In this document: in pieces, positions 1 through 57,651 of the stretch
Layout: each line of letters opens with the position of its first letter
Numbering within the stretch: the stretch's first letter is position 1
DNA from: an uncultured Gammaproteobacteria bacterium
GTDB taxonomy: Bacteria > Patescibacteriota > Patescibacteriia > Magasanikbacterales > UBA10003
Assembly: GCA_964596405.1 (NCBI GenBank)
Contig: CAZQSS010000002.1
Span: 1 to 57,830, forward strand
Length of the DNA: 57,830 nucleotides
Direction: 5' to 3'
The notes under the pieces: model-generated
The model's database searches: none
Seen by the model: only the letters and a program-made list of their open reading frames with translations
Told to the model about the DNA's origin: nothing
Position numbers and translations under genes: made by a program

Positions 1-59
1 ATTACCCCCGAAATACTTGACAGGTTTGAATAACGGGTATAAGATAACCTATTCTCTTT

Positions 60-1202
60 ATGGCTTATAATCTGAATCAACAGGCATGGGAAGCTCTAAA
101 CCGCGCCCGCCAAATCCTCGTGATTTTCCCCAAAGAAAACGAGGGTGACGGCGCCACGGCCGCTTTGGCGTTGGCCGAAATTCTGAAAAAACTCAACAAG
201 CAGGCCGAGGTCGTCTGTACGGATTTTATCGCGCCGCACAAGTGGTTATTTCTGCCCTCAATCAAAAATATCAAAAGCCAACTCTCGCCGCTCCAAAAAT
301 TCGTGATCAAAGTTGATCTGAAAAAAAATAAACTGGCTTCTTTAAGTTATGATGTTAAAGACAATAATCTCTATATTTATATCTCCCCTAAAGAAGGCGT
401 GATCAACCGCAGCGATGTTCACACCGCTTCCAGTGATTTCAAATTTGATTTGGTAGTGACAGTAGACGCGCCGGATTTAGCCTCGCTGGGGCGTATTTAC
501 GAAAACAACACCGAACTTTTTTCCAAAACTCCCATTATCAATATTGATCACAATCCGGCCAACGAACATTTTGGCAAAATCAATCTGGTGGATATCTCCG
601 CCTCCTCGGCGGCTGAAGTTCTGTTTGAATTTCTAAACCAAATCGCGCCGGAGCAGATTACCGCCGATGTCGCCACTCTCTTGCTCGCCGGTATGATTAT
701 CAAAACCAAAAATTTCCGCGCGGCCAATGTCAGCTCTCGCACCTTGAGCAATGCCGGTAAGCTGGTAGATTTGGGAGCCAAACGCGAAGAAATTGTTCAA
801 CACCTTTACCGCCAACGCTCACTCGCGGCCCTCAAACTCTGGGGCGAGGCTTTGGTGAATTTAAAAAATGATTCTAAAACGGGATTGATCTGGTTGAGTC
901 TCAAACGCGATGATTTTCGCCACGCCAATGCTACCGAATCCGACCTGCCGGAAATTATTGACGAGCTCTTGGCTAATTCGCCCGAGGCCAAAACTATTGT
1001 TTTACTTTATGAAACTGCCGAGGGCAGTGTGGCCGGGTTAGTGGCCACGGAAAAACATTTGGATGCCAAAACCCTTGTTCAGCCGTTCGCGCCCATAGGC
1101 AATCGGTTGAGGGTTAAAATAAATATTGTCGGCAAAGATTTGGCCGCTGCCGAACAGGCCGTCATAGAAACTATAAAAAACCGCCTGCCTGCCTGCCGGT
1201 AG
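60..1202 (+). CDS. DHH-family phosphoesterase (NrnA-like)
   Basis: 380-aa ORF with a DHH-type motif region (INIDHNPANEHFG) and a DHH/DHHA1-like layout. The last codons (NRLPACR) are encoded by a degenerate copy of the dispersed CCTGCC..GGCAGG palindrome. Confidence 0.65.
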   Translation: MAYNLNQQAWEALNRARQILVIFPKENEGDGATAALALAEILKKLNKQAEVVCTDFIAPHKWLFLPSIKNIKSQLSPLQKFVIKVDLKKNKLASLSYDVKDNNLYIYISPKEGVINRSDVHTASSDFKFDLVVTVDAPDLASLGRIYENNTELFSKTPIINIDHNPANEHFGKINLVDISASSAAEVLFEFLNQIAPEQITADVATLLLAGMIIKTKNFRAANVSSRTLSNAGKLVDLGAKREEIVQHLYRQRSLAALKLWGEALVNLKNDSKTGLIWLSLKRDDFRHANATESDLPEIIDELLANSPEAKTIVLLYETAEGSVAGLVATEKHLDAKTLVQPFAPIGNRLRVKINIVGKDLAAAEQAVIETIKNRLPACR

Positions 1203-1262
1203 GCCTGGCCGCAGATTTAAAAAATCGCTCCGATCAAGGGGCGATTTTTTTATTTATTCCAA

Positions 1263-1334
1263 TGCGCCTGGCAGGGATCGAACCTGCGACCCAACGATTA
1301 TAAGTCGTTTGCTCTGCCACTGAGCTACAGGCGC
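1263..1334 (-). tRNA. tRNA-Ile, anticodon UAU (no encoded CCA)
   Basis: Hand-folded 72-nt cloverleaf. Acceptor stem GCGCCTG/CAGGCGC, D stem GCTC/GAGC, anticodon stem AACGA/TCGTT with loop CTTATAA, variable loop GGGTC, T arm GCAGG-TTCGATC-CCTGC, discriminator A. Confidence 0.85.
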
Positions 1335-1997
1335 CTATTTTGGTAACTCCGTTAAAATCTTTAACTGCATCATTATTTTTTCTTTTAATTCTACCTTGTT
1401 AAACATAATTGTGCAAGTACCATGACCAAACGAACCTTTATGATTTATTCTGCAAGAAAGACTCTCTTTAATATATGGCTTTATAAATTGTTTGATTGAA
1501 ATATTTAAAAATTCTGCCCAGTATTTAATTTCTTTTTTAATATCCATATCTTTGTAAAGTTGCAGTGCGACTTTTAGGTCTTTGCTCTGTACTTTATAAA
1601 TTGATTTTAACCAATATATAAAAAATTTCAATACTTGCGGGTCAGTATTTGCCAAAGCCACTCTTGACCAATCTGCTTTACTGCCCTCACCCCAATATAA
1701 AGCTAACCCAGCAACAAACAGTTCTTTTTTCAAAAAGGGTAAAATGCGCTTTTTTTCAAAATTATATAAATTATTTAACCTCTCTTCTCTCTTTTTAAAC
1801 ATTGTCTGTCTAAATTTTTCAATTCTTATCTCACTGTTAGCTCTTAACTGATTAATCCTTTCTCTAGATAATGGATAATCTCTAAGCCAAGAACTTAACG
1901 TGCTTTTAGAGACGCCTGTTTCATTTTTTATTTGTGAATAACTTTTACCTTCTTTGCGCAACTCAAGAGCTCGCTCTCTTAATTTAATTTTGGACAC
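1335..1997 (-). CDS. HTH plus LAGLIDADG-like endonuclease-fold protein (hypothetical)
   Basis: 220-aa ORF. The N-terminus has a resolvase-type HTH (SYSQIKNETGVSKSTLSSWL) and there is a LAGLIDADG-like block FVAGLALYWGEGSK. The stop codon directly abuts the 5' end of the tRNA. Confidence 0.5.
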   Translation of the reverse strand: MSKIKLRERALELRKEGKSYSQIKNETGVSKSTLSSWLRDYPLSRERINQLRANSEIRIEKFRQTMFKKREERLNNLYNFEKKRILPFLKKELFVAGLALYWGEGSKADWSRVALANTDPQVLKFFIYWLKSIYKVQSKDLKVALQLYKDMDIKKEIKYWAEFLNISIKQFIKPYIKESLSCRINHKGSFGHGTCTIMFNKVELKEKIMMQLKILTELPK

Positions 1998-2094
1998 ATG
2001 AGTGAGGTTTATATAACTTACATTCGTAAGTACAATATATCACGCCTCTCTCCTTTTGACAATGGCCTTTCGTCAAAAACGTCTAGATAAACTA

Positions 2095-2285
2095 AACTCA
2101 TCCTTCTCTAATTCCTGCCTGCCGGCAGGCAGGCGCGCGAATTAGAGAAGGTAATCTGTCCTACGATTCCCTCCTCCGCCAAGCCTGCTTGTCGGCAGAC
2201 AGGGCTACGGCGGGCAGGCGCGCGAATTAAACCAAATAATCTATTCTACGATTCCTGCCTGCCGAGGAGGCAGGAATCGTAGAAT
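2095..2285. repeat. Cluster of nested palindromes built around the CCTGCCTGCCGGCAGGCAGG family
   Basis: TTCTCTAATT-CCTGCCTGCCGGCAGGCAGG-cgcgcg-AATTAGAGAA (perfect 20-bp palindrome at 2114-2133), a degenerate copy near 2183-2225, and an 18-bp-stem hairpin ATTCTACGATTCCTGCCT..AGGCAGGAATCGTAGAAT at 2252-2285. Confidence 0.9.
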
Positions 2286-2297
2286 ACTAAAACAAGA

Positions 2298-2334
2298 AAA
2301 AAATAAAAAAGCCCCACAGGTTGTGCTGTGGGGC
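2298..2334 (-). terminator. Rho-independent terminator of the pilin-like operon
   Basis: Hairpin GCCCCACAG-N5-CTGTGGGGC followed by a T-run on the minus strand. Confidence 0.8.
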
Positions 2335-2347
2335 GGGTGAAATTGTT

Positions 2348-2956
2348 TTACTCCGGCTTGGGGGCAATCTCCATGTTGATGATGATGCCCTTGACCGCGA
2401 GAGGCTGATTGGAGACGTGAACGATCTGGCCACCAGAGACGTAGTGCTGATGGTATACACCCTTCGTGTCCCACCAGTACAGATACTCCGCCGATTGGTC
2501 GTAAGTACCGTCGTCCTGAAGGACTTCTGAGGTTCTGTGTTGCCGTCCTCCGATTGCCACGGGTATTCCACTGAGTTCTGCATTGACATACTGCCCGTCT
2601 ACAGCGGCCACCGTTGTGGGAGTGAGACGCTTCCCTCCGCTCGTCACCTTGCCGCGCACCGTTGAGTAGATAATAACCTGCCCGCTGTAGGCGGAGACGA
2701 CGTAGAGGTGCTTGATTGAACCGGGCTTGTTGTCCTCGGTTAGGCGGTCGGCGACATTCTGCTGTTCGGCCGTAAGACCACCAGCATTGGTCTGAACATG
2801 CACCTCGGCCTGTTTCACGCCAGAGGCCGAAGTCGGTTCGTTTTTCGCCGTGCCGCTTACTCTGGAACAAAATGGAATCATAAGCGCGGCGAGAAGGCCT
2901 ATGATTGCGACAATGATCACGACCTCAATGAGAGTGAAACCATGCTGTTTGCGCAT
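2348..2956 (-). CDS. Type IV pilin-like / pseudopilin-like protein (prepilin N-terminal methylation motif)
   Basis: Start trimmed to MRKQHGFTLIEVVIIVAIIGLLAAL, which matches the class III signal G/FTLIE followed by a hydrophobic helix. The C-terminal domain is unassigned. Lies in a G+C-rich island. Confidence 0.7.
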   Translation of the reverse strand: MRKQHGFTLIEVVIIVAIIGLLAALMIPFCSRVSGTAKNEPTSASGVKQAEVHVQTNAGGLTAEQQNVADRLTEDNKPGSIKHLYVVSAYSGQVIIYSTVRGKVTSGGKRLTPTTVAAVDGQYVNAELSGIPVAIGGRQHRTSEVLQDDGTYDQSAEYLYWWDTKGVYHQHYVSGGQIVHVSNQPLAVKGIIINMEIAPKPE

Positions 2957-2984
2957 TGTCTTTCCCCTTTCTTCTGTTTCTTGG

Positions 2985-3446
2985 TTACTGGGTGATGTAG
3001 GGCTTGAACTCGCGCGGGAGCGGTTTGTCCGCGCCCTTGGGCAACTCACCGGCGTTGGCAAACCGCCAATTGAACTTGGCCATCTGCGCGTTGTACTCGG
3101 CGGCGAGCGAGTTGTAGCTGGCCTTGACGCCGGCCACTTCCGAGGCCCAGACGTTGTACTGCTCGCGATCCTCGCGCGGCCACTTGTGGCGCGGCAGGTC
3201 CTTGTAGGCCTCGGCCATCGCCTTCATGCGACCATCGTAGACCGTCACGTCAGCCTGCTTCTTCTCCAGCTGGGCGGCGGCGTCCTTGAACCACATGTAC
3301 TTCTTGAGCAGAGCCTCGGGGCCGAACTCGTCCTTGGCCACCTGGGCGGCCTCGTTACAGACGAAACAGCCCATGACGCTAAAAACGATCCCGAGAGCCA
3401 AAACCGCGAACACGAACTTCACGCACCGATTCACTACCTGTCTCAT
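2985..3446 (-). CDS. Predicted lipoprotein, function unknown
   Basis: 153-aa ORF with a signal peptide and lipobox (FSVMGC), directly upstream of the pilin-like gene. Lies in a G+C-rich island. Confidence 0.6.
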   Translation of the reverse strand: MRQVVNRCVKFVFAVLALGIVFSVMGCFVCNEAAQVAKDEFGPEALLKKYMWFKDAAAQLEKKQADVTVYDGRMKAMAEAYKDLPRHKWPREDREQYNVWASEVAGVKASYNSLAAEYNAQMAKFNWRFANAGELPKGADKPLPREFKPYITQ

Positions 3447-3450
3447 CCTG

Positions 3451-3488
3451 GCCTCCTTGTCCTCCGTAGCTTTAGCGTAGGAGGACTG
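3451..3488 (-). promoter_or_regulatory. Conserved 5' leader with anti-SD/SD hairpin (copy 1)
   Basis: The minus strand reads CAGTCCTCCTaCGCTAAAGCTACGGAGGACAAGGAGGC and ends 5 nt before the ATG. It is identical to 31978-32016 on the plus strand except for one base. Confidence 0.7.
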
Positions 3489-3562
3489 TATTTTCCCCTT
3501 GATTGGGGAGTTGGTGGATAGGGCAAAACGCCCTTATTCCGCTTTAAAAGATCTAATAAGCC

Positions 3563-3591
3563 ATCATAGCACATTTTGGGACTTTTGTCAA
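3563..3591 (-). promoter_or_regulatory. Sigma70-type promoter (TTGACA-17-TATGAT)
   Basis: The minus strand reads TTGACAaaagtcccaaaatgtgcTATGAT. The same architecture recurs in front of the other G+C-rich islands. Confidence 0.65.
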
Positions 3592-3617
3592 GAGGCGGTT
3601 TGTGTTAAGATAAAGAC

Positions 3618-5366
3618 ATGAAAAGTCTAGCCCAAATCCAAAAAAATCTGGCCAAAATTCTAAAGGCTGAAAAAGGCCTGCCTGCCGGTAGGCATGGCCT
3701 AAATTTTATTGCTGTCCTATCAAAAAAATTTCCCCAAGCCAAAATTTACTTGGTCGGCGGGATGGCGCGAGATTTATTTTTGGGACGCGAATCAAAGGAT
3801 TATGATTTTGTGGTCTGCGGCGTGCCGGCCAAAAAACTGGAAACAATTTTAAAAAAACTGGGCGCCACCAACCTGGTGGGAAAACGGTTTGGAGTTTTTA
3901 AATTCGCGCCTACTCTCCCACCCCCTCTTACTCTCCCCCTCGGGCAGGGGGAGAAAACGATAGAAATCGATATTGCCTTGCCCCGCACCGAACACGCCTG
4001 GGGCACCGGCGGCTATCGCGATGTGGAAACCCAATCCGATTGGCGCCTGCCGATTGAAAAAGATCTAGCCCGCCGCGACTTTACAATTAATGCGATGGCG
4101 TTGGAATTGGGAATTAGGAATAAAGAATTAGGAATTATGGACTTGACCGACCCGTTTGACGGTTTAAGTGATCTGAAGAAAAAATTGATCCGAACGGTGG
4201 GCAAACCCGAAGAAAGATTTAAAGAAGACTTTTCTCGCATGTTGCGCGGCCTGCGTTTTGCCTCGCAATTAAACTTTCAGATTGAAAAAAATACATGGGA
4301 TACATTAGTCAAGATGATGAAAAAAATAAACGCGACATTATGTCATTCCCGCCCCCGATCTGTCATCCCCGCGAACGCGGGGATCCAGTCGAGGGCAGGC
4401 TCCCGCGGGAATCCAGCGGCTGGATCCCGCATCAAGTGCGGGATGACAACGAGTGAACGCATTGTGCCTTACGAAGTTATCTCTAAAGAATTTTTAAAAT
4501 CGCTGGTCATCAATCCCTTAAAAACCGTTGACCTGTGGGATGAGGCCGGAGCGCTAAAACAGTTGATGCCGGAATTACTGAAAATGCAGGGCTGTCCCCA
4601 GCCGCCGGAATTTCACAAAGAAGGCGATGTTTGGACCCACACCTACTTGGCGCTGGGTAATCTTTTTGCTCCACATTTTAAAAAATTCGTCCGTTCCCTG
4701 CCTCCGTCTTTCCAAAATGAACCTCTGATTTCGCCGACTTTGGTTTTGGCGGTTTTATTTCACGACCTGGGCAAGCCTTATACCATCAAAACGCCGGAAA
4801 AAGACGGCGTGGACCGCATCCGCACCAACGAACACGATAGTGTGGGCGCCAAACTGGCCAAACAAATCGGCGAACGACTCCGCTTGAGCTCAGTGCCGGA
4901 CATGCATTGCAATTTAGACCATCTGGCCTGGCTTATCCAACACCATTTGCTGACTGTTCACGGCGACCCGATGAAATTTACTAATCGCACCATTGAAAAA
5001 TACTTCTTCAATCCGCTCGTGCCCGGCACTGACCTGTTAAAACTGATTTATTGCGATCAAATGGCCTCTTTTGTTGGTGGCAAACCCCAACTAGGTTCGC
5101 TCCCCCGCCTGGTTAAAAGAATAAAAATGCTTTTAGGCGGATTGCGCCAAACCAAACACCTGCCTACCGGCAAGGCAGGCCATGCCTACCGGCAGGCAGG
5201 TTTGCCGCCGCCGCTTTTAGACGGCCGCGAAATTATGATGGTCTTAAAACTAAAACCCGGTCGCCTCGTCGGCGACCTAAAAGACCGTTTGCGCGAGGCC
5301 CAGTTAGCCGGTAAAGTTAAAAATAAAAAACAAGCTAAAGATTTTTTAATCAAGATCCACTCCTAA
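3618..5366 (+). CDS. cca: tRNA nucleotidyltransferase (CCA-adding enzyme / poly(A) polymerase family) with HD domain
   Basis: Motifs GGMARDLFLGRESKDYDFVV, RRDFTINAMA and HD (LFHDLGKP). It is interrupted in frame by several repeat-derived segments. Confidence 0.85.
   Translation: MKSLAQIQKNLAKILKAEKGLPAGRHGLNFIAVLSKKFPQAKIYLVGGMARDLFLGRESKDYDFVVCGVPAKKLETILKKLGATNLVGKRFGVFKFAPTLPPPLTLPLGQGEKTIEIDIALPRTEHAWGTGGYRDVETQSDWRLPIEKDLARRDFTINAMALELGIRNKELGIMDLTDPFDGLSDLKKKLIRTVGKPEERFKEDFSRMLRGLRFASQLNFQIEKNTWDTLVKMMKKINATLCHSRPRSVIPANAGIQSRAGSRGNPAAGSRIKCGMTTSERIVPYEVISKEFLKSLVINPLKTVDLWDEAGALKQLMPELLKMQGCPQPPEFHKEGDVWTHTYLALGNLFAPHFKKFVRSLPPSFQNEPLISPTLVLAVLFHDLGKPYTIKTPEKDGVDRIRTNEHDSVGAKLAKQIGERLRLSSVPDMHCNLDHLAWLIQHHLLTVHGDPMKFTNRTIEKYFFNPLVPGTDLLKLIYCDQMASFVGGKPQLGSLPRLVKRIKMLLGGLRQTKHLPTGKAGHAYRQAGLPPPLLDGREIMMVLKLKPGRLVGDLKDRLREAQLAGKVKNKKQAKDFLIKIHS
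3677..3697. repeat. 20-bp palindrome family copy, in frame inside cca (encodes GLPAGRHG)
   Basis: CCTGCCTGCCGGTAGGCATGG. Confidence 0.9.
4341..4448. repeat. About 108-nt compound palindromic insertion, in frame inside cca
   Basis: GTCATCCCCGCGAACGCGGGGATCCAG ... CTGGATCCCGCATCAAGTGCGGGATGAC. Translates to CHSRPRSVIPANAGIQSRAGSRGNPAAGSRIKCGMT within an otherwise conserved enzyme. Confidence 0.8.
5159..5200. repeat. Tandem pair of 20-bp palindrome family copies, in frame inside cca
   Basis: CCTGCCTACCGGCAAGGCAGG followed by CATGCCTACCGGCAGGCAGG. Encodes LPTGKAGHAYRQAG. Confidence 0.9.
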
Positions 5367-5368
5367 TA

Positions 5369-5506
5369 TGCCCAGTAATACAACCCCGCAAGTTTCGCTT
5401 CGCGAAACATAAAAGATGCGTTGATATTACTAGGTCATCAAAATTTAAAAAAACATTTAATTTAAATCCCCGAATGATAAAATCATGCGGGGTTGATATA
5501 CTGGGT
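5369..5506 (+). mobile_element. MITE-like 138-nt element with terminal inverted repeats (copy A)
   Basis: TGCCCAGTAATACAACCCCGCAAGTTTCGCTTCGCGAAAC ... AAATCATGCGGGGTTGATATACTGGGT. The ends are inverted repeats and there is an internal hairpin GTTTCGC-TTC-GCGAAAC. A second copy is at 41902-42040. The element ends exactly at the start codon of rluD. Confidence 0.8.
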
Positions 5507-6541: not shown

Positions 6542-6610
6542 GAATCAGGAATCAGGAATTATGCGTGGCGATTTTTATTCCCTAATTCATAATTCTTAAT
6601 TCTTAATTCC
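6534..6610. repeat. GGAATTAGGAAT-type palindromic intergenic repeat / probable terminator
   Basis: GGAATTAGGAATCAGGAATCAGGAATTAT ... ATTCCCTAATTCATAATTCTTAATTCTTAATTCC. A related in-frame copy lies in cca at 4103-4137. Confidence 0.75.
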
Positions 6611-6617
6611 CAACACT

Positions 6618-17552: not shown

Positions 17553-17584
17553 AAAAAAAGCCCGCTCGAAAGTTCGAACGGGCT
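17553..17584 (-). terminator. Rho-independent terminator of the lipoprotein gene
   Basis: Hairpin with arms AGCCCG and CGGGCT followed by a T-run on the minus strand. Confidence 0.75.
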
Positions 17585-17608: not shown

Positions 17609-18424
17609 TCAGAGCGACTTGGGCGGAATAAGGAGCTGTAAGAGAGCTTCACCGGCTTCCAGGATTTCCTGGGTGTCACCGGCTGGCGCGCAACCTTGCT
17701 TGATCTCCAGGTAACGAACCAACAAGCTGTGAACGGCCGTGACTTGCTGGAGCGTCAGGTAGGGGCTAGGTCCGAGCTGACTGTCAGAGAGGGCACTCGC
17801 CGCCATATCCACGTGATTCAGAAGGTACTGGTTGGTCATGTCCAGGTTGTGGTTCGGCTCACTGCAGACGCCGCCGACAGCTCGGCCGGCCCGCCACTCA
17901 ATCACCCGCTGCACCAGGTTGGTCAGGCCAAAATGAGTAACACTCATCATAGCGACATTGCCGGTGACCGAGGAGGTGCTGGCGGTGAAGAAAAGCGGGT
18001 CTTTGAGATTCAGAGACGGATTGGCCGACGGCAGCAGAGTGACAAGTGCGCTTTCCTCAACTGTCTGGGTGTTGCCGCTCACCGTGCCAATCTTGACCAT
18101 GATCTTGTGATACAAAATCCTGTCACCGACCGGCTTGACTTCCACGCTGCCGACGAAATTATAAAGCTCGCTCGGCATGGCCGGTTTGCCCTTTGCTTCG
18201 AAAGTCACCACCTGCTCGACGAATGCGTCCGGGTAATCCATGCTGTGCATGACGAGCGTCAGCTGCGGATTTTCCTCGGGCCTGGCTGCCTCCGGCGGAT
18301 CAACCTTCGGGGCCGGTTTTTCCACGACCGGCAGAACAGTTTGGGCCGACCGCACGGTCACACAACCGCTGCCGAAAACCGTTATCAAAAGAACCGTCGT
18401 CACCGCCAGCATCATCTTTTTCAT
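17609..18424 (-). CDS. Lipoprotein, paralog family member 1
   Basis: Signal peptide and lipobox (VFGSGC). The C-terminal block ..PYLTLQQVTAVHSLLVRYLEIKQGCAPAGDTQEILEAGEALLQLL aligns with 25301-26062 and 26059-26835. G+C-rich. Confidence 0.75.
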   Translation of the reverse strand: MKKMMLAVTTVLLITVFGSGCVTVRSAQTVLPVVEKPAPKVDPPEAARPEENPQLTLVMHSMDYPDAFVEQVVTFEAKGKPAMPSELYNFVGSVEVKPVGDRILYHKIMVKIGTVSGNTQTVEESALVTLLPSANPSLNLKDPLFFTASTSSVTGNVAMMSVTHFGLTNLVQRVIEWRAGRAVGGVCSEPNHNLDMTNQYLLNHVDMAASALSDSQLGPSPYLTLQQVTAVHSLLVRYLEIKQGCAPAGDTQEILEAGEALLQLLIPPKSL

Positions 18425-18476: not shown

Positions 18477-18505
18477 ATGATAGCACATTTTTAGCCTTTT
18501 GTCAA
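18477..18505 (-). promoter_or_regulatory. Sigma70-type promoter (TTGACA-17-TATCAT)
   Basis: The minus strand reads TTGACAaaaggctaaaaatgtgcTATCAT, near-identical in layout to 3563-3591. Confidence 0.65.
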
Positions 18506-24834: not shown

Positions 24835-24872
24835 GGAAATAAAGAAGACCCGCCTTTGTAAGCACGGGTCTT
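24835..24872 (-). terminator. Rho-independent terminator of the lipoprotein operon
   Basis: Hairpin AGACCCG..CGGGTCT followed by a T-rich run on the minus strand. Confidence 0.7.
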
Positions 24873-24892
24873 TATGTTTGTGAGCGGATTGT

Positions 24893-25258
24893 TCACCGTA
24901 CCGTCATGGCTCGGTGGGGTGCTCTTCTTCTCGCGAGCTCTTTGCGCTCGTCTTTCGTGAGGGTGTTGGCCTGTTCCTTGGCGTATAATCCCTCAATTCT
25001 GTCCCAATCTATCACTGCATTGTTGCGAGCCCATAACTCCCGATGTTCCTTGTCCTCTTCGCTGGAAATGCTACCAGCGATGGACTTAGAGGTTAGTTCA
25101 TGAAGCCTCTTCATCCATACTTCTCTTTCGCTGATTTTTTTCCACGATCGTATTTGCTTGAGTTTCTCAAGCTCTTTGTTGGTGAGTGTGCCAGCTTGCT
25201 CCTTGCGAAGCAAGTCGTGGAATATTCGCATCACATTCTCTATTCTTAAGGAACTCAT
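24893..25258 (-). CDS. Hypothetical 121-aa protein with internal repeat (KEQAGTLTNKELEKL / KEQANTLTKDERKEL)
   Basis: Good RBS (AGGAGGTGGCG-ATG). Last gene of the operon that starts at 26835. Confidence 0.6.
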   Translation of the reverse strand: MSSLRIENVMRIFHDLLRKEQAGTLTNKELEKLKQIRSWKKISEREVWMKRLHELTSKSIAGSISSEEDKEHRELWARNNAVIDWDRIEGLYAKEQANTLTKDERKELARRRAPHRAMTVR

Positions 25259-25300: not shown

Positions 25301-26062
25301 TTAGTTTGCCAAAATCTGATAAATCAGGTTCTGACCCTTCTCCAGCGCCTCAACAGCGTTACTGTCTTTCAGGCAGTTGTGCTGAGCCTGCAAATAGTCC
25401 TTGATAACCCGGTTGGCCTCCAGCATCTCGCCGAATTTCAGGTACGGCGCGCCGTCTTTGAGAAAACCGTCGGCCATTCTTTCGGCCGTGCGGAAAACAA
25501 CCAAGCTCACGGTGATGGACGACGGGTCATACCGCTCATCCGTAGCTCTTGTGCCTTCATTGCAGATATCCTCGCGCGGCATCACATAGCCCTCTTCAAT
25601 GGCCACCACGTTTTCCGCCAGGATATTGAGCATCAGCCGCGTCGCTTCCATCATCTTGATCTTGTGTTCAAAACCGATGACGGTGGCGGTAAAATCAGCT
25701 GGACCAATAATCTGCCGCGGCCGGCTCATGGGTTCAAGAAAAATCTCGCCCTGGGTAGCCACCACTTCCATGTGTTTGCTATTGACTCCCACCAAGGCGT
25801 CCATGCGGGTGTAAAGCGCCGCCCGATCATCAGCTGAAATTTCCATAGAATGGTCAGTTCGGTTGGTGAAAATCTTTTCGCCCGGGATGTATTGGCCGCC
25901 GTCGCTGATGATGGAATAAGACGCGTAGTGAACCGTAGCCTCGGGGAAATTGATAATAATGGGATCGGGTTCCGTGATCACCAGCGGCTTTTTGGAACAG
26001 CCGCCGATGGCCAGAGTGAAAACCGCGAATGCGATCAAGAAAAAACACGTCAGCTTTTTCAT
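25301..26062 (-). CDS. Lipoprotein, paralog family member 3
   Basis: Start trimmed to MKKLTCFFLIAFAVFTLAIGGC (lipobox). Its ATG overlaps the upstream stop codon (ATGA). Aligns with 26059-26835 (IKMMEATRLMLNILAENV vs IKMMTVTQLLLVYLADRL). Confidence 0.8.
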   Translation of the reverse strand: MKKLTCFFLIAFAVFTLAIGGCSKKPLVITEPDPIIINFPEATVHYASYSIISDGGQYIPGEKIFTNRTDHSMEISADDRAALYTRMDALVGVNSKHMEVVATQGEIFLEPMSRPRQIIGPADFTATVIGFEHKIKMMEATRLMLNILAENVVAIEEGYVMPREDICNEGTRATDERYDPSSITVSLVVFRTAERMADGFLKDGAPYLKFGEMLEANRVIKDYLQAQHNCLKDSNAVEALEKGQNLIYQILAN

Positions 26063-26835
26063 TTCACCTCTCCTTTGTAAAGAAGGTTGAGGAGTTCCTG
26101 AAACTGAATCAGAGCTTCTTCTGTTTCCGTATCGGACAGACAACCGGCTCGGAGAGCAACTACTCGTCGCGTGACTTCCCAAGCGGCCACCACCTCATCG
26201 TATTTGAGATAACGACTGCCGTCGGCCAAACGCGTTGTCGCCAGCCGATCCGCCAGCAGTTGCACCATGCCATCGCTCGGATTGAGATTGGAATCAAATT
26301 CCACCGTGTCCGGGCTCGGACAAACGTATGGCGCAAATTCATAACGCGCCAAACTTTCCAATCGGTCAGCCAGATAAACCAATAAAAGCTGGGTGACAGT
26401 CATCATCTTGATCCTCTCGCCCGCTTCCACAAAAGCGACAAATCTGGCCGGATTGTTGGTCGGGTCTTCAGACCGCGCCTCAACGATTAGAGCGTGCAGT
26501 TCGCGGCCGGCCTCGGCGCCATTGGGGCACCGGATGACCATCCGCTCATCAAGTTGCGACATTTCTTTTTCAATCTTCAACGTCATTCGCAAGTCAGATT
26601 GGCAATTTTCTGTCATCCGATTATTGTAAAACGTCTTAATAGAATACATGACAATCGCTTCGGGGAAAATCAGCGCTTCTGACTGATAGTCGGACTTTTC
26701 CATATACGGCTCGACCCGCCCGCCTGCTTGCGGAGCTTGCGGCGGGGCCGGTTTTGCCAACGCCGGCACAATCGGCGCGCTCGCGCAACCCAGAACAAAA
26801 AACATCGCCCCAAACAACCACATCAGCTTCTTCAT
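26059..26835 (-). CDS. Lipoprotein, paralog family member 2
   Basis: Signal peptide and lipobox MFFVLGC. The C-terminal block DGSRYLKYDEVVAAWEVTRRVVALRAGCLSDTETEEALIQFQELLNLLY is shared with the paralogs. Confidence 0.8.
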   Translation of the reverse strand: MKKLMWLFGAMFFVLGCASAPIVPALAKPAPPQAPQAGGRVEPYMEKSDYQSEALIFPEAIVMYSIKTFYNNRMTENCQSDLRMTLKIEKEMSQLDERMVIRCPNGAEAGRELHALIVEARSEDPTNNPARFVAFVEAGERIKMMTVTQLLLVYLADRLESLARYEFAPYVCPSPDTVEFDSNLNPSDGMVQLLADRLATTRLADGSRYLKYDEVVAAWEVTRRVVALRAGCLSDTETEEALIQFQELLNLLYKGEVK

Positions 26836-26928
26836 TGGATTCTCCTTTTGCCCCGTTTGCGGGGCTTTTTAGTTGTTAAAGATGCTCCCATTATCCTCAC
26901 ACAAACTGACCAAATTGTCAATCCGCTA

Positions 26929-26958
26929 AATCAAAACCCGATACTGTTAAGTATCGGG
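26929..26958 (-). terminator. Rho-independent terminator after the Cys-rich protein gene
   Basis: Hairpin CCCGATAC-ttaaca-GTATCGGG followed by TTTTGATTT on the minus strand. Confidence 0.75.
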
Positions 26959-26977
26959 CTAGGGATCCAAGCGGTTA

Positions 26978-27439
26978 CTACGGGAACTGGCAGTGCCGAG
27001 CCTGTTTCCAGAACTCTTCATCCACCATCTGGGCGCAGGCTTCGTTCGCATCGTGAGGCAGGGAGTAACAGCTGGGGTCATGATGCGCCGCCTCGTGGAC
27101 CAGAGTGTCGGCTTGGCCGATCGGAAGATTGGTCGGATCGCGAAGCTCGGCCACGCGACAACCGTCCTTGACGTAGGCGCAGCCCACCGCTTCACAGAGT
27201 CCTTCCGGCGTCCGCTTGTTGCACGGGCACTTGTTCCCGCGCACCAGGATGATCGTGTCCACCCGGTCCTTGATGTAGTCCTCGTACTCGGGACCCGCGC
27301 ACTCCAAAATCTCCTTGGTCTTCTCGGGCGCCACCTGGTCGTAACCATCCATGCAGGACGGCTCCACGGCCCAGGGCTCACCGCACGCGTTGCAAATCGT
27401 CGCCACACACACCATCGCCGCCATAAGCATCGTTTTCAT
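26978..27439 (-). CDS. Secreted Cys-rich protein with HExxH motif (putative zinc metallopeptidase-like)
   Basis: Signal peptide, about 16 Cys residues in 153 aa, and the motif LVHEAAHHD. Confidence 0.6.
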   Translation of the reverse strand: MKTMLMAAMVCVATICNACGEPWAVEPSCMDGYDQVAPEKTKEILECAGPEYEDYIKDRVDTIILVRGNKCPCNKRTPEGLCEAVGCAYVKDGCRVAELRDPTNLPIGQADTLVHEAAHHDPSCYSLPHDANEACAQMVDEEFWKQARHCQFP

Positions 27440-27509: not shown

Positions 27510-27538
27510 AGTATAGCACATCTTTGGGATTTTGTCAA
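27510..27538 (-). promoter_or_regulatory. Sigma70-type promoter (TTGACA-17-TATACT)
   Basis: The minus strand reads TTGACAaaatcccaaagatgtgcTATACT. Confidence 0.65.
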
Positions 27539-27615: not shown

Positions 27616-27644
27616 TTGACAAAGATTCAAACACCTGGTAATAT
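27616..27644 (+). promoter_or_regulatory. Sigma70-type promoter (TTGACA-17-TAATAT)
   Basis: TTGACAaagattcaaacacctggTAATAT, 58 nt upstream of the small ORF at 27703. Confidence 0.6.
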
Positions 27645-27702
27645 TCCTTCTTAGTAGTCGTCTGCGCCCTGTTCTTTGAACCCAGACCCAAAAAGGAGAA
27701 AA

Positions 27703-27846
27703 ATGCCGAACCTGAAAATGCCCGTGGACGCGATCGTGAGTGTTCTGGAAGCCGAAATACAGCAGATGACGCCCGAGGAACGTGCGGCCCTGGTCAAAAA
27801 CATGATGCGTCTGAAAAAGCTGGCCGAAAAACTGACCGAGGAATAA
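27703..27846 (+). CDS. Small 47-aa helical protein (absent from the ORF track)
   Basis: AAGGAG RBS 6 nt before the ATG. Translation is MPNLKMPVDAIVSVLEAEIQQMTPEERAALVKNMMRLKKLAEKLTEE. It has its own promoter and terminator. Confidence 0.55.
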   Translation: MPNLKMPVDAIVSVLEAEIQQMTPEERAALVKNMMRLKKLAEKLTEE

Positions 27847-27960
27847 AGCATCCTCAATTATCACGCCAACCACGTCGGTTGCTGACCGAGGGAAAAGGTA
27901 TCCCGACGTCACAGAACGCATCCCCTCTTTTGACTGCTGTTAACAGCGTCTAACTCAAAA

Positions 27961-27996
27961 CCCCTCGGACATAATGTCTCGAGGGGTTTTTATTTT
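27961..27996 (+). terminator. Rho-independent terminator
   Basis: Hairpin CCCCTCGGAC-ataat-GTCTCGAGGGG followed by TTTTTATTTTT. Confidence 0.75.
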
Positions 27997-28134
27997 TGCC
28001 TGTCATGATGCCAATCTCAACACCTCCCTTAATCCCTCCTTCGCAAGGAGGGAAAAACATGTTTCAAGTTTTCCCGCCACAGCGGGATCCCGACTTCATT
28101 ATTATCAAATAAAAAAGGTACGTCGGGACATGCT

Positions 28135-31883: not shown

Positions 31884-31912
31884 TTGACAAGTTTGCTGTT
31901 TTGTGCTATACT
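31884..31912 (+). promoter_or_regulatory. Sigma70-type promoter (TTGACA-17-TATACT)
   Basis: TTGACAagtttgctgttttgtgcTATACT, sharing the TGTGCTATA extended -10 with the other islands. Confidence 0.65.
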
Positions 31913-31980: not shown

Positions 31981-32016
31981 GTCCTCCTGCGCTAAAGCTA
32001 CGGAGGACAAGGAGGC
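31981..32016 (+). promoter_or_regulatory. Conserved 5' leader with anti-SD/SD hairpin (copy 2)
   Basis: GTCCTCCTGCGCTAAAGCTACGGAGGACAAGGAGGC, ending 5 nt before the ATG at 32022. Confidence 0.7.
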
Positions 32017-32021
32017 TCACA

Positions 32022-32609
32022 ATGAAGCTCTGGACAATGGTGCTGATGGCGGTCGTGGCCCTTTTCTGTTTCACGCTCGCGGCCTATGCCCAGGAGGACA
32101 AGACCGAGGCGGCCAAGATCCAGGCGATCGCCGACGCCGAAGCCATGCTCCAGCCGCTGGAGGATAACGTAAGTATCCTCTGGAAGAAAATGTTCGAGGA
32201 CCGCCAAGTCAAGTGGGAGGAAATGAAGTCTCTCAATGCGGCAATCGAAAAGTATGAGAATGAACTCGAGGCCGCAAACCAACACCTCTCAATCTACGAC
32301 GACGCCAAACTCCCAAACCGGCTCTACCTGTCCACCAGGGAATTCAACAAGTTCTACTTCCAAGGAGCAAAGTACGGCCACCTCGACCAACCCAAAATGC
32401 GACTCATAGCCGCCAAAGAGGGTGTTGACCTGCAAAAGATAGAAAAGCACGTAAATCCGGCGACTCAAGGAGTATCGTGGCTTGGAATACTACTATGCGC
32501 GGGAATCTTACTGCTTGGGCTGATAAAAAAGAGCCCTGTGGTCGCGGCGCTGGGTTTTGGACTAATGGCAGCCACATCTGTTTCCTTCCTGATAATCATA
32601 TCTGCCTGA
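32022..32609 (+). CDS. Secreted coiled-coil protein with C-terminal two-TM anchor, unknown function
   Basis: Signal peptide (..TLAAYA-QE) and two C-terminal hydrophobic helices. G+C-rich island with its own promoter and terminator. Confidence 0.65.
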   Translation: MKLWTMVLMAVVALFCFTLAAYAQEDKTEAAKIQAIADAEAMLQPLEDNVSILWKKMFEDRQVKWEEMKSLNAAIEKYENELEAANQHLSIYDDAKLPNRLYLSTREFNKFYFQGAKYGHLDQPKMRLIAAKEGVDLQKIEKHVNPATQGVSWLGILLCAGILLLGLIKKSPVVAALGFGLMAATSVSFLIIISA

Positions 32610-32635: not shown

Positions 32636-32671
32636 CACCCCCAATCCTAACGGATTCGGGGGTGTTTTTTT
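32636..32671 (+). terminator. Rho-independent terminator
   Basis: Hairpin CACCCCCAATCC-taac-GGATTCGGGGGTG followed by TTTTTTT. Confidence 0.8.
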
Positions 32672-50785: not shown

Positions 50786-50838
50786 ATAAAAAAAGACACT
50801 GGAATGTTTGCGTGTTGACGCAAAATTTTCCAGTGTCT
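50786..50838 (-). terminator. Rho-independent terminator of the gene at 50851-51468
   Basis: Hairpin AGACACTGGAA..TTCCAGTGTCT followed by TTTTTTT on the minus strand. Confidence 0.8.
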
Positions 50839-50850
50839 TGTTTGGTTAGA

Positions 50851-51468
50851 TTACAAAGTGGCGGGCGGCAGGGGGCGGGCGAGAAAATAGTAATAATCGC
50901 TCCACCGGCTGACATACCCGCGCAGGGAGATAACGCGCGCCTTGCCCCGGCGACGGATCTCAACCACAAAACGGTTGGTGTCCGGCGCCACATAAACAGC
51001 GCCCAAGGCTACAATCGGATGATCTCTCTGTTCCTCGGGATTGTTGGCTCCGTAGTTCATGAGCTCGATGGGGTCCGCCAACTCATAACCCTTGGTGGCC
51101 AGCAATACCGGAATCTCTGAAAGATCAACATCGCGGCCGAAATTAAAAGTCCGGAGTTCGCTGAAAGGTGTGCCACGCGAAGGCTGAGGAAACTTGTCGG
51201 CGGTAATGGGAATGTCACGCAAGTCATAGTGACCGGCTTTGATCTGATCTTCAAAAAGCAGAAGATAAAAAGGGTCGGCCACTTTCCGAGCGACACCGAC
51301 AATGAGGACGGCAATCTGTTTGGCCAGCTCGGGATCGGCGCGCAGACGGTTCAGTTCCGCGTCTCCCCCGCCCAAGGCCAGCACGGCATCAGCCACGGCC
51401 TTGTAATTAAGTGATGCGCCGCAAAAAGCCCTGATGGACTCACAGCCGGCTCCTCTTTTTTTTGCCAT
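50851..51468 (-). CDS. Hypothetical cytoplasmic 205-aa protein (G+C-rich island)
   Basis: Start trimmed to MAKKRGAG. No signal peptide and no motif recognised. Confidence 0.55.
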   Translation of the reverse strand: MAKKRGAGCESIRAFCGASLNYKAVADAVLALGGGDAELNRLRADPELAKQIAVLIVGVARKVADPFYLLLFEDQIKAGHYDLRDIPITADKFPQPSRGTPFSELRTFNFGRDVDLSEIPVLLATKGYELADPIELMNYGANNPEEQRDHPIVALGAVYVAPDTNRFVVEIRRRGKARVISLRGYVSRWSDYYYFLARPLPPATL

Positions 51469-51517
51469 TAAGTTTCCTTTCTCCGGTTTAGTTGGTTTTT
51501 GAAGGAACACTCCTTAC

Positions 51518-51578
51518 TTCTTAATCTATTCTGAATAATTTGTCAACCTCTTGACATTTGTCTAAAAAAGACTAAGAT
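51518..51578. promoter_or_regulatory. Divergent back-to-back promoters sharing TTGTCAAcctcTTGACA
   Basis: The minus strand has TTGACA-17-TAAGAA and the plus strand has TTGACA-16-TAAGAT. The two -35 boxes are separated by 4 nt. Confidence 0.55.
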
Positions 51579-51637
51579 GAAACCAGTACTTTCCAAATCT
51601 AACCCCCGCAAGGCGGGGCAGGCAAAAAGGAGGTAAG

Positions 51638-51904
51638 GTGAGTATGATGGTCACCGTTTGGCTGATTAGCGCCCTTGTCTTTGTCGTTTCGACGTTTATT
51701 GAAGCTGTCCTCAACGCTCAGCACAATCGAACCATGTGGCAGGCGATTGCCGCGGAAAAGAATGCCAACGAAATTATCGCCTCGCTAAAACCCTATCTTC
51801 TGCCCGGCCGCATCTTTCGCGCTCTTAGTTTGAGCGCCTGTGTAATCGCCATTATCACCACTTTTATCATCGTGGGCTTCTGGATCGCAAACCTAAAACC
51901 GTAA
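51638..51904 (+). CDS. Small two-TM membrane protein (88 aa)
   Basis: AGGAGG RBS and a GTG/ATG start cluster, preceded by the CCCCGC..GGGG leader hairpin. Confidence 0.6.
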   Translation: MSMMVTVWLISALVFVVSTFIEAVLNAQHNRTMWQAIAAEKNANEIIASLKPYLLPGRIFRALSLSACVIAIITTFIIVGFWIANLKP

Positions 51905-51946
51905 ACAAACCCCGCCCTTACGGAACGGGGCAAGAAGGAGAAACCA

Positions 51947-52240
51947 ATGGAAACGGAAACAGTGATGCTTACTTGCGCTGTGATAGCCGCCATCTGTGGA
52001 CTGGTGATGTATTGCATTGTGAAAAGAAAGAATGAACTGTTTGAACAAGCAATCACGGCGGAAGACATTGATACCGAAGCCATAACCAAGGCCTACTCTT
52101 ATGGAAAAATTCCGTTCATCATCGCCCTGGTCATCGGCGCTATTGCCGTGTTTATAATTTTTATTTTGACAGCCAGCCTTTTCTTCAGCGGCCCCACCAC
52201 AAAACTCCTGCTCCCCCATATAAAACTCTTCATCGGCTAA
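51947..52240 (+). CDS. Small three-helix membrane protein (97 aa)
   Basis: GAAGGAG RBS, preceded by the CCCCGC..GGGG-type hairpin. Confidence 0.6.
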   Translation: METETVMLTCAVIAAICGLVMYCIVKRKNELFEQAITAEDIDTEAITKAYSYGKIPFIIALVIGAIAVFIIFILTASLFFSGPTTKLLLPHIKLFIG

Positions 52241-52248
52241 ACTAACCA

Positions 52249-52284
52249 ATAAAAACCCGTCTGTCAACACAGGCGGGTTTTTTC
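52249..52284. terminator. Bidirectional rho-independent terminator
   Basis: Hairpin ACCCGTCTGT-caac-ACAGGCGGGT flanked by A-run and T-run. Confidence 0.8.
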
Positions 52285-52293
52285 TAATATGCG

Positions 52294-56402: not shown

Positions 56403-56489
56403 GAAGGTCAAGAGACGTTTTTGTGGATAAATGCAAACAAAACAAATAATAAATAAAACCCCCAACCGTTAGATTGGGAGTTTCAAGAT

Positions 56490-56909
56490 TTACTTGGGCA
56501 TGGCGCCAAAATTGGCGCCAGCCGGCCACTTGAATTCTGGGTCGCAGTCTATCTTGATGACTATACCCATCACCGGATCGCGATCCGAGCAGCCGGGTAC
56601 CATATAACAAACGCGGGTGTTGAGGGAAATAGTGCCGGCCGAACCGAGGGCATAGATCAGCCCGCCATCGGCCGTGGCCCGCTTGGGCTCTTTCATGATC
56701 TCTTCAAGGGCCGCTGGCTCAAGCATGGCCGCATCCATCTTCTGGAGCACCTCAAGGGTCGTCAGATCCTGATTGAAAGAGACAATCTGCAGACCGGAGC
56801 CGGTCTTCATAACGTTTGTTTCCAGACGATGCGTTGAGCAACCGCCTGCCATCACCGCGCTCACCACGAGGGCCACCACCATCATTACGAGCGCTGTTCT
56901 CTTGGTCAC
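56490..56909 (-). CDS. Lipoprotein (139 aa, GTG start), unknown function
   Basis: GAGGAG RBS 6 nt before the GTG. Signal peptide and lipobox VMAGGC. G+C-rich island. Confidence 0.65.
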   Translation of the reverse strand: MTKRTALVMMVVALVVSAVMAGGCSTHRLETNVMKTGSGLQIVSFNQDLTTLEVLQKMDAAMLEPAALEEIMKEPKRATADGGLIYALGSAGTISLNTRVCYMVPGCSDRDPVMGIVIKIDCDPEFKWPAGANFGAMPK

Positions 56910-56992
56910 GTTTTTCTCCTCGCCCCGCTTTGCGGCGGCTTGCCACGCCTTGCGGGACTTTTGGTGTTTGTTGAAAGACCGCTGATAAAACC

Positions 56993-57340
56993 CTACTTTT
57001 CCGGTTTGGCTGATGCCTTCTCTTCTAAACCATCGCTCAACGCGCCCATCATGAAGACAATGGCCACAAGCGCAAAGAGAGCGCCGACAATCCCGGCGGT
57101 AATCAAGCCCGGCAGAATTGTCGATTCCCAACCGACAAAGATGCGGGCGATGAGCATGGCCGCGCCGCCAAAAATGGCGCTGACCAACGCTCCCACAAAA
57201 AGCACCACCATGGCCGTGCCAAAAGCATAGACCAGACAGGCGCCGAAGATTGCCCCAATCAGCCAATCCGGCAGACCCAAAATCTGTACTGCCAGTATGC
57301 CCAAAAAGATCCCCGCCGCCAACACTTCTTTCCTGTTCAT
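56993..57340 (-). CDS. Gly/Ala-rich four-TM membrane protein (115 aa)
   Basis: Clear hydrophobic helices. Its start overlaps the stop of the upstream zinc-ribbon gene (ATGA). Confidence 0.65.
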   Translation of the reverse strand: MNRKEVLAAGIFLGILAVQILGLPDWLIGAIFGACLVYAFGTAMVVLFVGALVSAIFGGAAMLIARIFVGWESTILPGLITAGIVGALFALVAIVFMMGALSDGLEEKASAKPEK

Positions 57341-57522
57341 CGCTTACTCCTCTTTCTCGTTTTTTGACGGACTCGCACAACTCTCCAATAAACCATCTCA
57401 TGAACAATGTAACGGTTGTCGTCGCAGACCGGACAGACCTGGGCGATATCGTGACCTCCATAGCCCCGGCATTCCGGGCAAACAACCTGCCGATAAGCCA
57501 CTACCTTTTTTCTCTTGCTCAC
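57337..57522 (-). CDS. Small zinc-ribbon protein (CPEC..CPVC)
   Basis: GGAGG RBS 5 nt before the GTG at 57522. The tracked ORF begins at an upstream TTG at 57534. Confidence 0.55.
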   Translation of the reverse strand: MSKRKKVVAYRQVVCPECRGYGGHDIAQVCPVCDDNRYIVHEMVYWRVVRVRQKTRKRSKR

Positions 57523-57622
57523 TGGCACCTCCAATTGAAGTTTAAAGAACTTTACCCTGTTAAATGCCGCGGGGCGGCAATCCCGTTCATAGCGGGATTA
57601 TTTAACAGGGTGAACTACCTTA

Positions 57623-57651
57623 ACCTAACCATTTTTTGGGAGTTTTGTCAA
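57623..57651 (-). promoter_or_regulatory. Candidate promoter (TTGACA-17-TTAGGT) of the zinc-ribbon/membrane/lipoprotein operon
   Basis: TTGACAaaactcccaaaaaatggTTAGGT, followed by a long leader hairpin CCCTGTTAAAT..ATTTAACAGGG at 57554-57610. Confidence 0.45.

Follow-up and report, generated by a model that had tools for sequence, protein, structure and literature searches.

Morons, a concept which is said to go back to Juhala and Hendrix, and the replacement flexible genomic islands of aquatic prokaryotes are the described systems closest to the loci reported here. A moron is defined by a promoter and a factor-independent terminator of its own and by a guanine-plus-cytosine (GC) content unlike that of its neighbours (PMC2920897). 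Replacement flexible islands persist through homologous recombination (PMC4033161) and, in their classical form, are glycosylation, O-antigen or flagellar clusters of 10-100 kb, usually with a lower GC content. In the window analysed here, the whole 57,830-nt stretch of contig CAZQSS010000002.1, which carries housekeeping genes of a groundwater Patescibacteria (Candidate Phyla Radiation) chromosome, six short GC-rich islands combine traits of both, as they are built like morons and behave in the population like miniature replacement flexible genomic islands. On balance, these islands are probably small (0.8-3 kb), moron-like, hypervariable replacement loci, mostly for predicted envelope proteins, at fixed chromosomal positions. 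Patescibacteria are contact-dependent and phage-exposed, with almost all of their interface proteins unannotated, and compositional mini-islands that mark fast-turnover envelope loci would provide a cheap route to interaction and defence candidates in thousands of genomes.

Like phage morons, the island units have their own promoter and terminator and a deviant GC content, are set between unrelated genes and often code for lipoproteins or membrane proteins, and one such unit, the gene pair of island 1, recurs in unrelated elements. Unlike morons, they reside between chromosomal housekeeping operons and not within a phage or prophage, and islands 3 and 4 appear vertically inherited and syntenic, not sporadically inserted. 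With the replacement flexible islands of aquatic prokaryotes they share the same position across strains, near-identical flanks around divergent or swapped content, putative exposed envelope structures (as predicted for 11 of the 15 products), homologous recombination and a turnover thought to be driven by phage predation (PMC4033161). They differ from the classical replacement islands in their small size, in coding for single proteins, in their density of six in 58 kb and in being GC-richer than the core.

Composition and unit anatomy of the islands

The window has a GC content of 0.449. Its asparaginyl-tRNA synthetase (AsnRS) is at most 75% identical to that of any of 185,579 reference genomes, with a metagenome-assembled Magasanikbacteria genome as the top match and the remaining matches mostly in Patescibacteria; exact matches to window proteins are restricted to contigs from the Hainich groundwater wells H41 and H51. 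The initial annotation had singled out the six segments by eye as GC-richer than their surroundings, which the quantitative profile bears out with values of 0.50-0.56 (0.556, 0.554, 0.516, 0.502, 0.495 and 0.527 for islands 1 to 6) against 0.435 in the remainder of the window. Measured against non-island segments of the same length, the six islands have z-scores of 4.0, 3.4, 3.8, 1.7, 2.1 and 2.9, and bulk GC is therefore a weak sign for islands 4 and 5 (z = 1.7 and 2.1). The clearer signal is found at the level of the gene, in the GC content of third codon positions (GC3), which ranges from 0.55 to 0.87 (mean 0.66) in the 15 island genes defined here and amounts to 0.456 +/- 0.073 with a maximum of 0.59 in the comparison set of 52 backbone open reading frames (ORFs) of the window. 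All 15 island genes surpass the 95th percentile of the backbone and 11 its maximum (Mann-Whitney p = 3e-9); at four-fold degenerate sites the gap is smaller, with 0.72 in islands versus 0.62 in the backbone.

Genes for rRNA and other non-coding RNA, like misassembled contaminant DNA, typically show up as GC-rich stretches with ORFs on both strands, and a trivial origin of the signal, be it a chimeric assembly, hidden structured-RNA genes or the codon bias of highly expressed genes, has to be considered. Long spurious ORFs on both strands had initially been described as confined to the islands; they are not, as antisense ORFs also reside in uvrA (8633-9226 and 10004-10840) and in the AsnRS gene (28780-29376). 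An Rfam scan of the window at gathering as well as E-value thresholds retrieved a single tRNA-Ile and no rRNA or other family in the islands, which rules out hidden rRNA or non-coding RNA genes, and the reading frames encode signal peptides and have conserved homologues. Islands 2 and 5 including their junctions recur at 99.5-100% identity and in the same context in independent Hainich assemblies from several samples, and the islands are therefore not assembly chimeras. Expression-linked codon bias, finally, cannot account for the GC3 excess, since tuf and the ribosomal protein genes have a GC3 of only 0.38-0.54. The explanation as an artefact is thus essentially refuted.

Perfect TTGACA-N16-18-TAnnnT sites occur ten times in the window, and seven of them are situated at island starts (3591, 18505, 27538, 27616, 31884, 51551 and 57651), the same seven sites that score highest in promoter consensus scans. 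Islands 1 and 2 have the top two promoter matches of the first 20 kb as well as two of its three strongest terminators, and the remaining units behave alike. The proposal that every island starts with a near-consensus promoter holds in this form, with weaker consensus matches for the I5a and I3b promoters. Likewise, a rho-independent terminator closes every island, as found by terminator scans (2334-2311, 17584-17559, 26960-26935, 56485-56454 and 52259-52278) or by direct reading of the sequence (~24846-24880, 27960-27998, 32636-32671 and 50786-50842). Every island is thus predicted to be an autonomous transcription unit with its own promoter and intrinsic terminator.

Fixed positions and fast turnover of content

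Islands 1, 3 and 4 could be compared with close relatives, as the initial annotation had proposed, and in all three cases the same position between conserved flanks is occupied by content that is more divergent than the flanks. For I4, just four homologues were found, and the context is readable for two of them (contigs L112 and L113). In L113/L112 the slot reads Map-I4 and I4-148-aa gene-adk-secY-ribosomal protein genes. I4 is 46-53% identical to these orthologues and the flanking proteins are 82-99% identical, except for adk with 58%; at the nucleotide level, identity of about 0.9 in the flanks drops to 0.4-0.78 within I4. Conserved within the locus are the N-terminal 50 residues and the promoter (TTGACAAGTTTG.TGTTTTGTGCTATAAT), and the orthologues have a GC3 of 0.68 versus 0.40-0.54 in their own genomes. 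In the window, island 4 is encoded on the plus strand by a promoter (31884..31912, TTGACA-17-TATACT with TG, kept in the L113 orthologue), the I4 gene (32022..32609, GC3 0.66), whose 195-aa product has a predicted signal peptide, a coiled coil and C-terminal membrane helices, and an intrinsic terminator read directly from the sequence (32636..32671). The neighbouring adk (33264-33926), with 58% identity to L112 and a nucleotide dip to 0.47-0.67, may be another replaced gene.

Orthologues of I3b and I3c adjoin AsnRS in contigs L114 and L115, where AsnRS is 87% identical to that of the window, I3b 48% and I3c 42%, and where I3a and I3d are exchanged for other genes. The I3b orthologue is still GC3-rich (0.67), such that the GC3 excess is retained in three of the four orthologues examined for islands 3 and 4. 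On the minus strand of the window, island 3 starts with a promoter (27510..27538, TTGACA-17-TATACT with TG) and I3a (26978..27439, GC3 0.80), a 153-aa secreted Cys-rich protein with an HEAAH motif, which is followed by an intrinsic terminator found by the terminator scan (26935..26960). A second unit on the same strand has a promoter-like site (26890..26921, TTGACA ... GAGGATAAT), the layout of which is kept in the L114 orthologue, and encodes the 258-aa lipoprotein I3b (26059..26835) with a CCCCGCAAACGGGGC hairpin just 5′ of its Shine-Dalgarno sequence, its tandem paralogue I3c (25301..26062), a lipoprotein of 253 aa, and I3d (24893..25258), a 121-aa helical protein without signal peptide; its distal terminator (24846..24880) was read directly. 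The I3e unit on the plus strand (27616..27998) consists of a promoter (27616-27644), a 47-aa ORF (27703-27846) and a terminator (27960-27998). I2, I3b and I3c are distant paralogous lipoproteins with about seven family representatives among 1.84 billion proteins, and a word-seeded search retrieved no relatives of them. In 80 Patescibacteria AsnRS loci (1.1 Mb), no island homologue was detected. Directly beside AsnRS in L016, L041, L059, L063, L064 and others, a GC-rich patch of 0.5-1 kb contains unrelated hypothetical genes, some for basic or membrane proteins, and the slot may vary across the phylum.

The same syntenic slot, the conserved promoters and the mostly kept GC3 excess indicate a composition that persists and is not the fading signature of a recent donor. 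Islands 3 and 4 thus appear to be old residents and not recent imports, that is, fixed slots with a fast turnover of content, and acquisition from a higher-GC donor, which had been suggested at the outset, finds no support as a general explanation. More broadly, a persistent GC3 excess at syntenic, hyper-divergent loci argues against equating atypical composition with recent foreign DNA.

Island 1, on the minus strand, starts with a promoter (3563..3591; TTGACA-17-TATGAT with a TG-extended -10) identified by consensus scans and by the repeat finder as a member of a 30-nt family, followed by I1a (2985..3446, GC3 0.87), whose 153-aa product combines a conserved helical domain with a membrane or lipoprotein anchor at its N-terminus. 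I1b (2348..2956) encodes 202 aa, in which a prepilin-type N-terminus (G|FTLIE) is joined to a domain of 160 aa that is highly conserved, and an intrinsic terminator from the terminator scan (2311..2334) closes the unit. In a sister strain from well H41 (contig L103), positions 1401-2300 and 3600-5200 of the window are matched at 99-100% identity, I1a is 94-98% identical, and I1b shares just 61-86% nucleotide identity with indels. The L103 allele of I1b starts with MKK...LAGC, a lipoprotein signal, in place of the GFTLIE of the window, and an internal loop differs too. Over the shared domain, the I1b of the window is nearer to the alleles of other contigs (81%; P0004, P0006) than to that of the sister strain (70%; P0044). 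A divergence of about 35% between 100% identical flanks is beyond point mutation, and recombination has thus replaced the allele.

The island 1 gene pair and the origin of the islands

A search for relatives of I1b gave 1849 at E <= 0.001, of which the 119 best listed are 56-81% identical. An I1a-like gene precedes I1b in every context examined, and the pair is found in at least four unrelated Patescibacteria chromosomal contexts and on at least four phage- or mobile element-like contigs; the suggested spread as a module is thereby borne out for island 1. On chromosomes, the pair is situated between an insertion sequence (IS) fragment and AsnRS-RecO-RuvX-Map (L013, the only context with an IS integrase fragment beside the pair), beside adk-map (L097) and between a HepT/MNT toxin-antitoxin system and RluD-L19 (L109-111). 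The phage- or mobile element-like contigs L096, L098, L116 and L010 are dissimilar, and their viral nature is deduced from few markers. L098/L099, 42 kb long and coding on one strand, encodes GroES, an ATP-dependent ligase, an M15 endolysin and ThyX; Erf and a ParB-methylase are present on L096, which is from IMG/VR; L116 extends over 72 kb with three methylases, HNH and a sliding clamp; and L010, of 84 kb and low GC, carries a DUF87/Zot ATPase and comes from a bin that was deposited as "Nanoarchaeia". In L010, tandem pairs of tiny membrane ORFs surround the I1a/I1b homologues (1-10573); this contig may be plasmid- or virus-like, and its host assignment is uncertain. The GC content of the pair is 0.55-0.57 in Patescibacteria chromosomes, with flanks of 0.39-0.44, and 0.40-0.46 in the phage-like contigs. 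Each chromosomal copy has a different TTGACA promoter and its own terminator, and the phage-like copies are embedded in an operon; the proposed refitting with native promoters is consistent with island 1, as the pair follows a different promoter in each chromosome. Cultured phages gave only marginal matches.

Scans of Pfam, NCBIfam, PADLOC and PHROGs assigned almost none of the island proteins to a known family, the exceptions being the pilin motif of I1b and a sub-threshold LemA match of I1a. I1a reaches 17.8 bits against LemA (PF04011), below the gathering cut-off of 26.2, with a weak match in three of six family members (best E = 0.0014), and gave no PDB match by profile. The prepilin motif of I1b scores above the cut-offs of PF07963 (33.4 versus 21.2 bits) and TIGR02532 (20.5 versus 16.3), all NCBIfam pilin equivalogs remain far below theirs with matches that cover the N-terminus alone, and PHROGs matches are equally limited to the pilin-type N-terminus. 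Its conserved domain of about 160 aa has many invariant polar residues. The N-terminal anchor is pilin-like in 16 and lipoprotein-like in at least 87 of 121 aligned family members. An AlphaFold model of full-length I1b was unusable (predicted local distance difference test, pLDDT, 56), and the model of the domain only (pLDDT 75) predicts a helix followed by a beta-sandwich-like arrangement, without PDB neighbour or pilin-fold match. One significant neighbour of the domain was found in BFVD, an unnamed viral protein (E = 1.6e-5, TM 0.47), and the model weakly resembles several phage proteins annotated as lipoproteins.

I1b compares with two kinds of anchored proteins. With type IV pilins and pseudopilins, the allele of the window shares the canonical G|FTLIE prepilin N-terminus, whereas its globular domain is shared with mostly lipoprotein-type homologues and has no pilin match in PDB. 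T5 Llp, TP-J34 Ltp and lambda Bor, on the other hand, are surface lipoproteins by which phages or prophages exclude superinfection. The island 1 pair resembles them in its predicted membrane or lipid anchors, its occurrence on phage-like contigs as well as chromosomes and the weakly phage lipoprotein-like model of I1b, but no characterised exclusion protein is homologous to it in sequence or, with confidence, in structure, and it is, with 56-81% identity, far more conserved than is usual for such proteins. A spanin pair was considered and ruled out, as the lipoprotein is too long and too conserved and is not beside the endolysin in L098; Patescibacteria, moreover, are not known to have an outer membrane. 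With its more than 1800 relatives, its presence on phage-like contigs and an anchor switch between co-occurring strains, the pair is a concrete target, for which genetically tractable Saccharibacteria systems exist.

In the reading preferred here, each replacement locus consists of a strong native sigma-70-type extended -10 promoter, a 5′ untranslated region (UTR) with acquired palindromes or hairpins, an AAGGAGG ribosome-binding site, one to three ORFs and an intrinsic terminator. In the islands that could be compared, the content changes much more rapidly than the flanks, and does so in two ways, by diverging in place or by mosaic exchange (islands 3 and 4), and by replacement of alleles or cassettes through homologous recombination with a gene pool of Patescibacteria and phage-like elements (island 1). 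Recombining bacterial genes show elevated GC3 (PMC4450053), and the raised GC3 of the islands would be intrinsic to the loci and likely result from recombination hot spots with GC-biased repair, from a donor pool of higher GC, or from the two together; the islands would be a suitable case on which to test GC-biased gene conversion in reduced genomes. Phages and/or host cells may drive the turnover by exerting diversifying selection on surface structures, and the island 1 pair would most likely be a phage-linked surface module for exclusion, receptor masking or adhesion, tethered by a lipid or a pilin helix.

Several points weigh against this reading. Envelope features (lipobox, prepilin motif, signal peptide, membrane helices) are predicted for 11 of the 15 island products, and the remaining four, I3d, I3e, I5a and I6a, have neither signal peptide nor membrane segment and are not envelope proteins, such that the initial description of the products as almost exclusively exported stands for the majority only. 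The comparative evidence covers three of the six islands (1, 3 and 4); islands 2, 5 and 6, for which otherwise only clonal copies were compared, are assigned by analogy with these. The I3c orthologue in L114 is not GC3-rich (0.48), and GC-biased recombination and a GC-richer pool both fit the persistent excess as its cause. The fetched stretches of the phage-like contigs contain no capsid or terminase gene, and the phage call rests on a few markers. The structural support for the proposed role of the island 1 pair is limited to the viral match and the weak resemblance to phage lipoproteins, with no PDB relative.

A recent horizontal origin of all six islands, from one or several donors of higher GC and with a composition not yet adjusted to that of the host, is unlikely. 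The atypical GC3 of the island genes would be expected under such an origin, related Patescibacteria with a GC content of 0.55-0.65 exist as possible donors, a tRNA-Ile gene is situated about 1 kb from island 1, and the island 1 pair is demonstrably mobile and GC-rich in four different low-GC Patescibacteria chromosomes. However, islands 3 and 4 are syntenic in relatives with flanks of 85-99% identity, conserved promoters and a mostly kept GC3 offset, which is therefore old and maintained, and the GC3 spread of 0.55-0.87 does not suggest a single donor. The tRNA-Ile gene is not adjacent to island 1, no integrase, transposase or att-like direct repeat flanks any island within the window, and the marks of classical horizontally acquired islands, an integrase or transposase and tRNA-linked insertion with direct repeats, were not found there. 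Integron-like cassettes were ruled out separately, with no integrase, no attC-like repeat and an own promoter for each unit. Even less probable is an origin as decayed prophage remnants, that is, as true phage morons that remained when the phage was lost. The anatomy matches the definition of a moron with own promoter, own terminator and different GC (PMC2920897), the island 1 pair is present in phage-like contigs, and the best structural neighbour of the I1b domain is viral, with weak matches to a few phage lipoproteins. Yet no phage gene flanks the islands, which in the window border on tRNA-Ile, the CCA enzyme, aminoacyl-tRNA synthetases (AspRS, AsnRS), Map, S12 and similar ribosomal and housekeeping genes; islands 3 and 4 are almost without relatives, none of which was found in viral contigs (IMG/VR scans for I3a, I4 and I5a gave no viral relatives); and the PHROGs matches end with the pilin-type N-terminus.

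Going beyond the preferred reading of replacement loci, it is conceivable, though rather doubtful as a whole, that I1a/I1b constitute a conserved surface module carried by phages or mobile elements among ultra-small symbionts (Patescibacteria and possibly DPANN archaea) and domesticated at hypervariable slots, with an effector domain whose anchor can change from lipid tail to type IV pilin stem and a GC3 excess that marks turnover by GC-biased recombination. If true, the pair would be an exchangeable factor that determines phage exclusion or attachment to host cells.

Shared promoter and leader elements, repeats and the remaining islands

Compatible with the replacement loci, the islands might in addition be co-regulated as a single surface-protein regulon by promoter and leader elements that they have in common, a proposition that we regard as tentative at best. 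An unguided repeat finder retrieved a 30-nt promoter family in four copies (3563, 18477, 27510 and 57623; 73-87% identical), with which island 4 has TTGACAAG...TGTGCTATACT in common, and TTGACAA...TGTGCTAT is present at five islands. This part of the initially described shared context stands, whereas TGTGCTAT is a native extended -10 box also used by the tuf promoter, and the leader common to islands 1 and 4 is a promiscuous repeat. TGTGCTATAAT is found in the tuf promoter as well and is therefore native consensus. CCCCGC...GGGGCAAG hairpins are located directly 5′ of the Shine-Dalgarno sequence in five units, but not in the L114 orthologue. A ATCTTTAACA-like motif is present in the 5′ UTRs of I2 (exact), I3b (one mismatch) and the I4 orthologue of L113 (exact); as a leader motif it is not significant, with 32 occurrences observed versus 21 +/- 5 expected when two mismatches are allowed. 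Housekeeping operons have an upstream repeat family of their own, 63 nt long and of similar identity (73-81%), and no regulator gene is associated with the islands. Because the -10 box is native, the leader a repeat, the hairpin missing in an orthologue and ATCTTTAACA not significant, the case for a dedicated regulon appears weak. The copies of the AT-rich 63-nt family (8099-8161, 35588-35650, 39607-39669 and 50161-50223) are situated upstream of housekeeping and ribosomal protein operons and may represent a second, distinct promoter or leader family.

The 42-nt leader common to islands 1 and 4, 95% identical according to the repeat finder, is a copy of a 35-nt palindromic repeat, GTCCTCCTACGCTAAAGCTACGGAGGACAAGGAGG, which in the 5′ UTR of island 1 (3452..3486, minus strand) supplies the Shine-Dalgarno sequence of I1a and in island 4 (31981..32015, plus strand) that of I4. 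Its core was found in five contigs of a metagenome collection, one of them from the sister strain; the palindrome is positioned between genes in two of these contigs and in frame in two others, within an ftsK-like gene and an E2 dehydrogenase lipoyl-linker gene, where it is translated as SSFAKATEDKE. It is not found in the leaders of the I4 orthologues (L112, L113). Its occurrence in unrelated genes and its absence from these leaders suggest a mobile palindromic repeat that ends by chance in AAGGAGG and now supplies the ribosome-binding site. A riboswitch or other regulatory RNA in the leader was ruled out on the same grounds. Rickettsia palindromic elements are short palindromic repeats, similar to miniature inverted-repeat transposable elements, that insert in frame. 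The 35-nt element resembles them in its presence in unrelated genomes, intergenic as well as in frame, and differs in being much shorter, in ending in AAGGAGG and in its apparent co-option as a ribosome-binding site. The 35-nt palindrome ending in GGACAAGGAGG (L100-L104) occurs in unrelated organisms with a GC content of 0.40-0.62 and looks like a widespread, translation-tolerant mini-repeat.

The window is rich in other intergenic repeat families as well. Palindromic repeats of the CCTGCCTGCCGGCAGGCAGG type (1187-7218 and 29569-29605) are intergenic and also in frame in the gene for the CCA-adding enzyme (3618-5366), and several in-frame insertions differ in presence between the window and the sister strain L103. 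Directly downstream of the island 1 terminator resides a cluster of palindromic repeats (2100-2290).

Island 2 on the minus strand comprises a promoter (18477..18505, TTGACA-17-TATCAT with TG), the gene of the 271-aa lipoprotein I2 (17609..18424, GC3 0.71), the distant paralogue of I3b and I3c, and an intrinsic terminator from the terminator scan (17559..17584). Island 5 is made up of two units. The I5a unit on the minus strand (50786..51546) has a weak promoter (51518-51546), a gene for a 205-aa soluble protein (50851-51468) and a terminator (~50786-50842); the I5b/I5c unit on the plus strand (51551..52285), with a promoter (51551-51578), hairpins (51604-51619 and 51909-51931) and a terminator (52255-52285), encodes two small membrane proteins (51644-51904 and 51947-52240). 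Island 6, on the minus strand, starts with a copy of the promoter family (57622..57651; TTGACAAAACTCCCAAAAAATGG...) and a structured leader (57540..57616), in which a long stem encloses two hairpins (-38 kcal/mol, z = -4.2). Rfam has no match for this leader, which may act as an attenuator or bind a protein. The operon (56490..57534) encodes a Zn-ribbon protein (57337-57534), a membrane protein (56993-57340) and the lipoprotein I6c (56490-56909), followed by an intrinsic terminator from the terminator scan (56454..56485).

GC-rich islands 2 and 3 are separated by a low-GC flexible block (18672-24398), in which four copies of a 167-nt repeat (18672, 20290, 21352 and 24232) are interleaved with low-GC ORFans (20462-21238, GC 0.31; 23275-23985, GC 0.30), and which contains a type II restriction-modification pair of an N6/N4 methylase (21689-22480) and an MvaI/BcnI endonuclease (22477-23265). 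In the otherwise conserved str operon, a gene of the PD-(D/E)XK_3 nuclease family (49113-49694, GC 0.35) is situated between rpsG and fusA. Contig L108, of the same population, is 99.9% identical to the window as far as 46907 and diverges to the left of this position; after fusA, it has a 418-aa DUF5667 protein in place of a 128-aa ORF and tuf. At the left end of the window, the tRNA-Ile gene (anticodon TAT) is situated beside a helix-turn-helix gene (1335-1997, GC 0.305; region 1263-1997).

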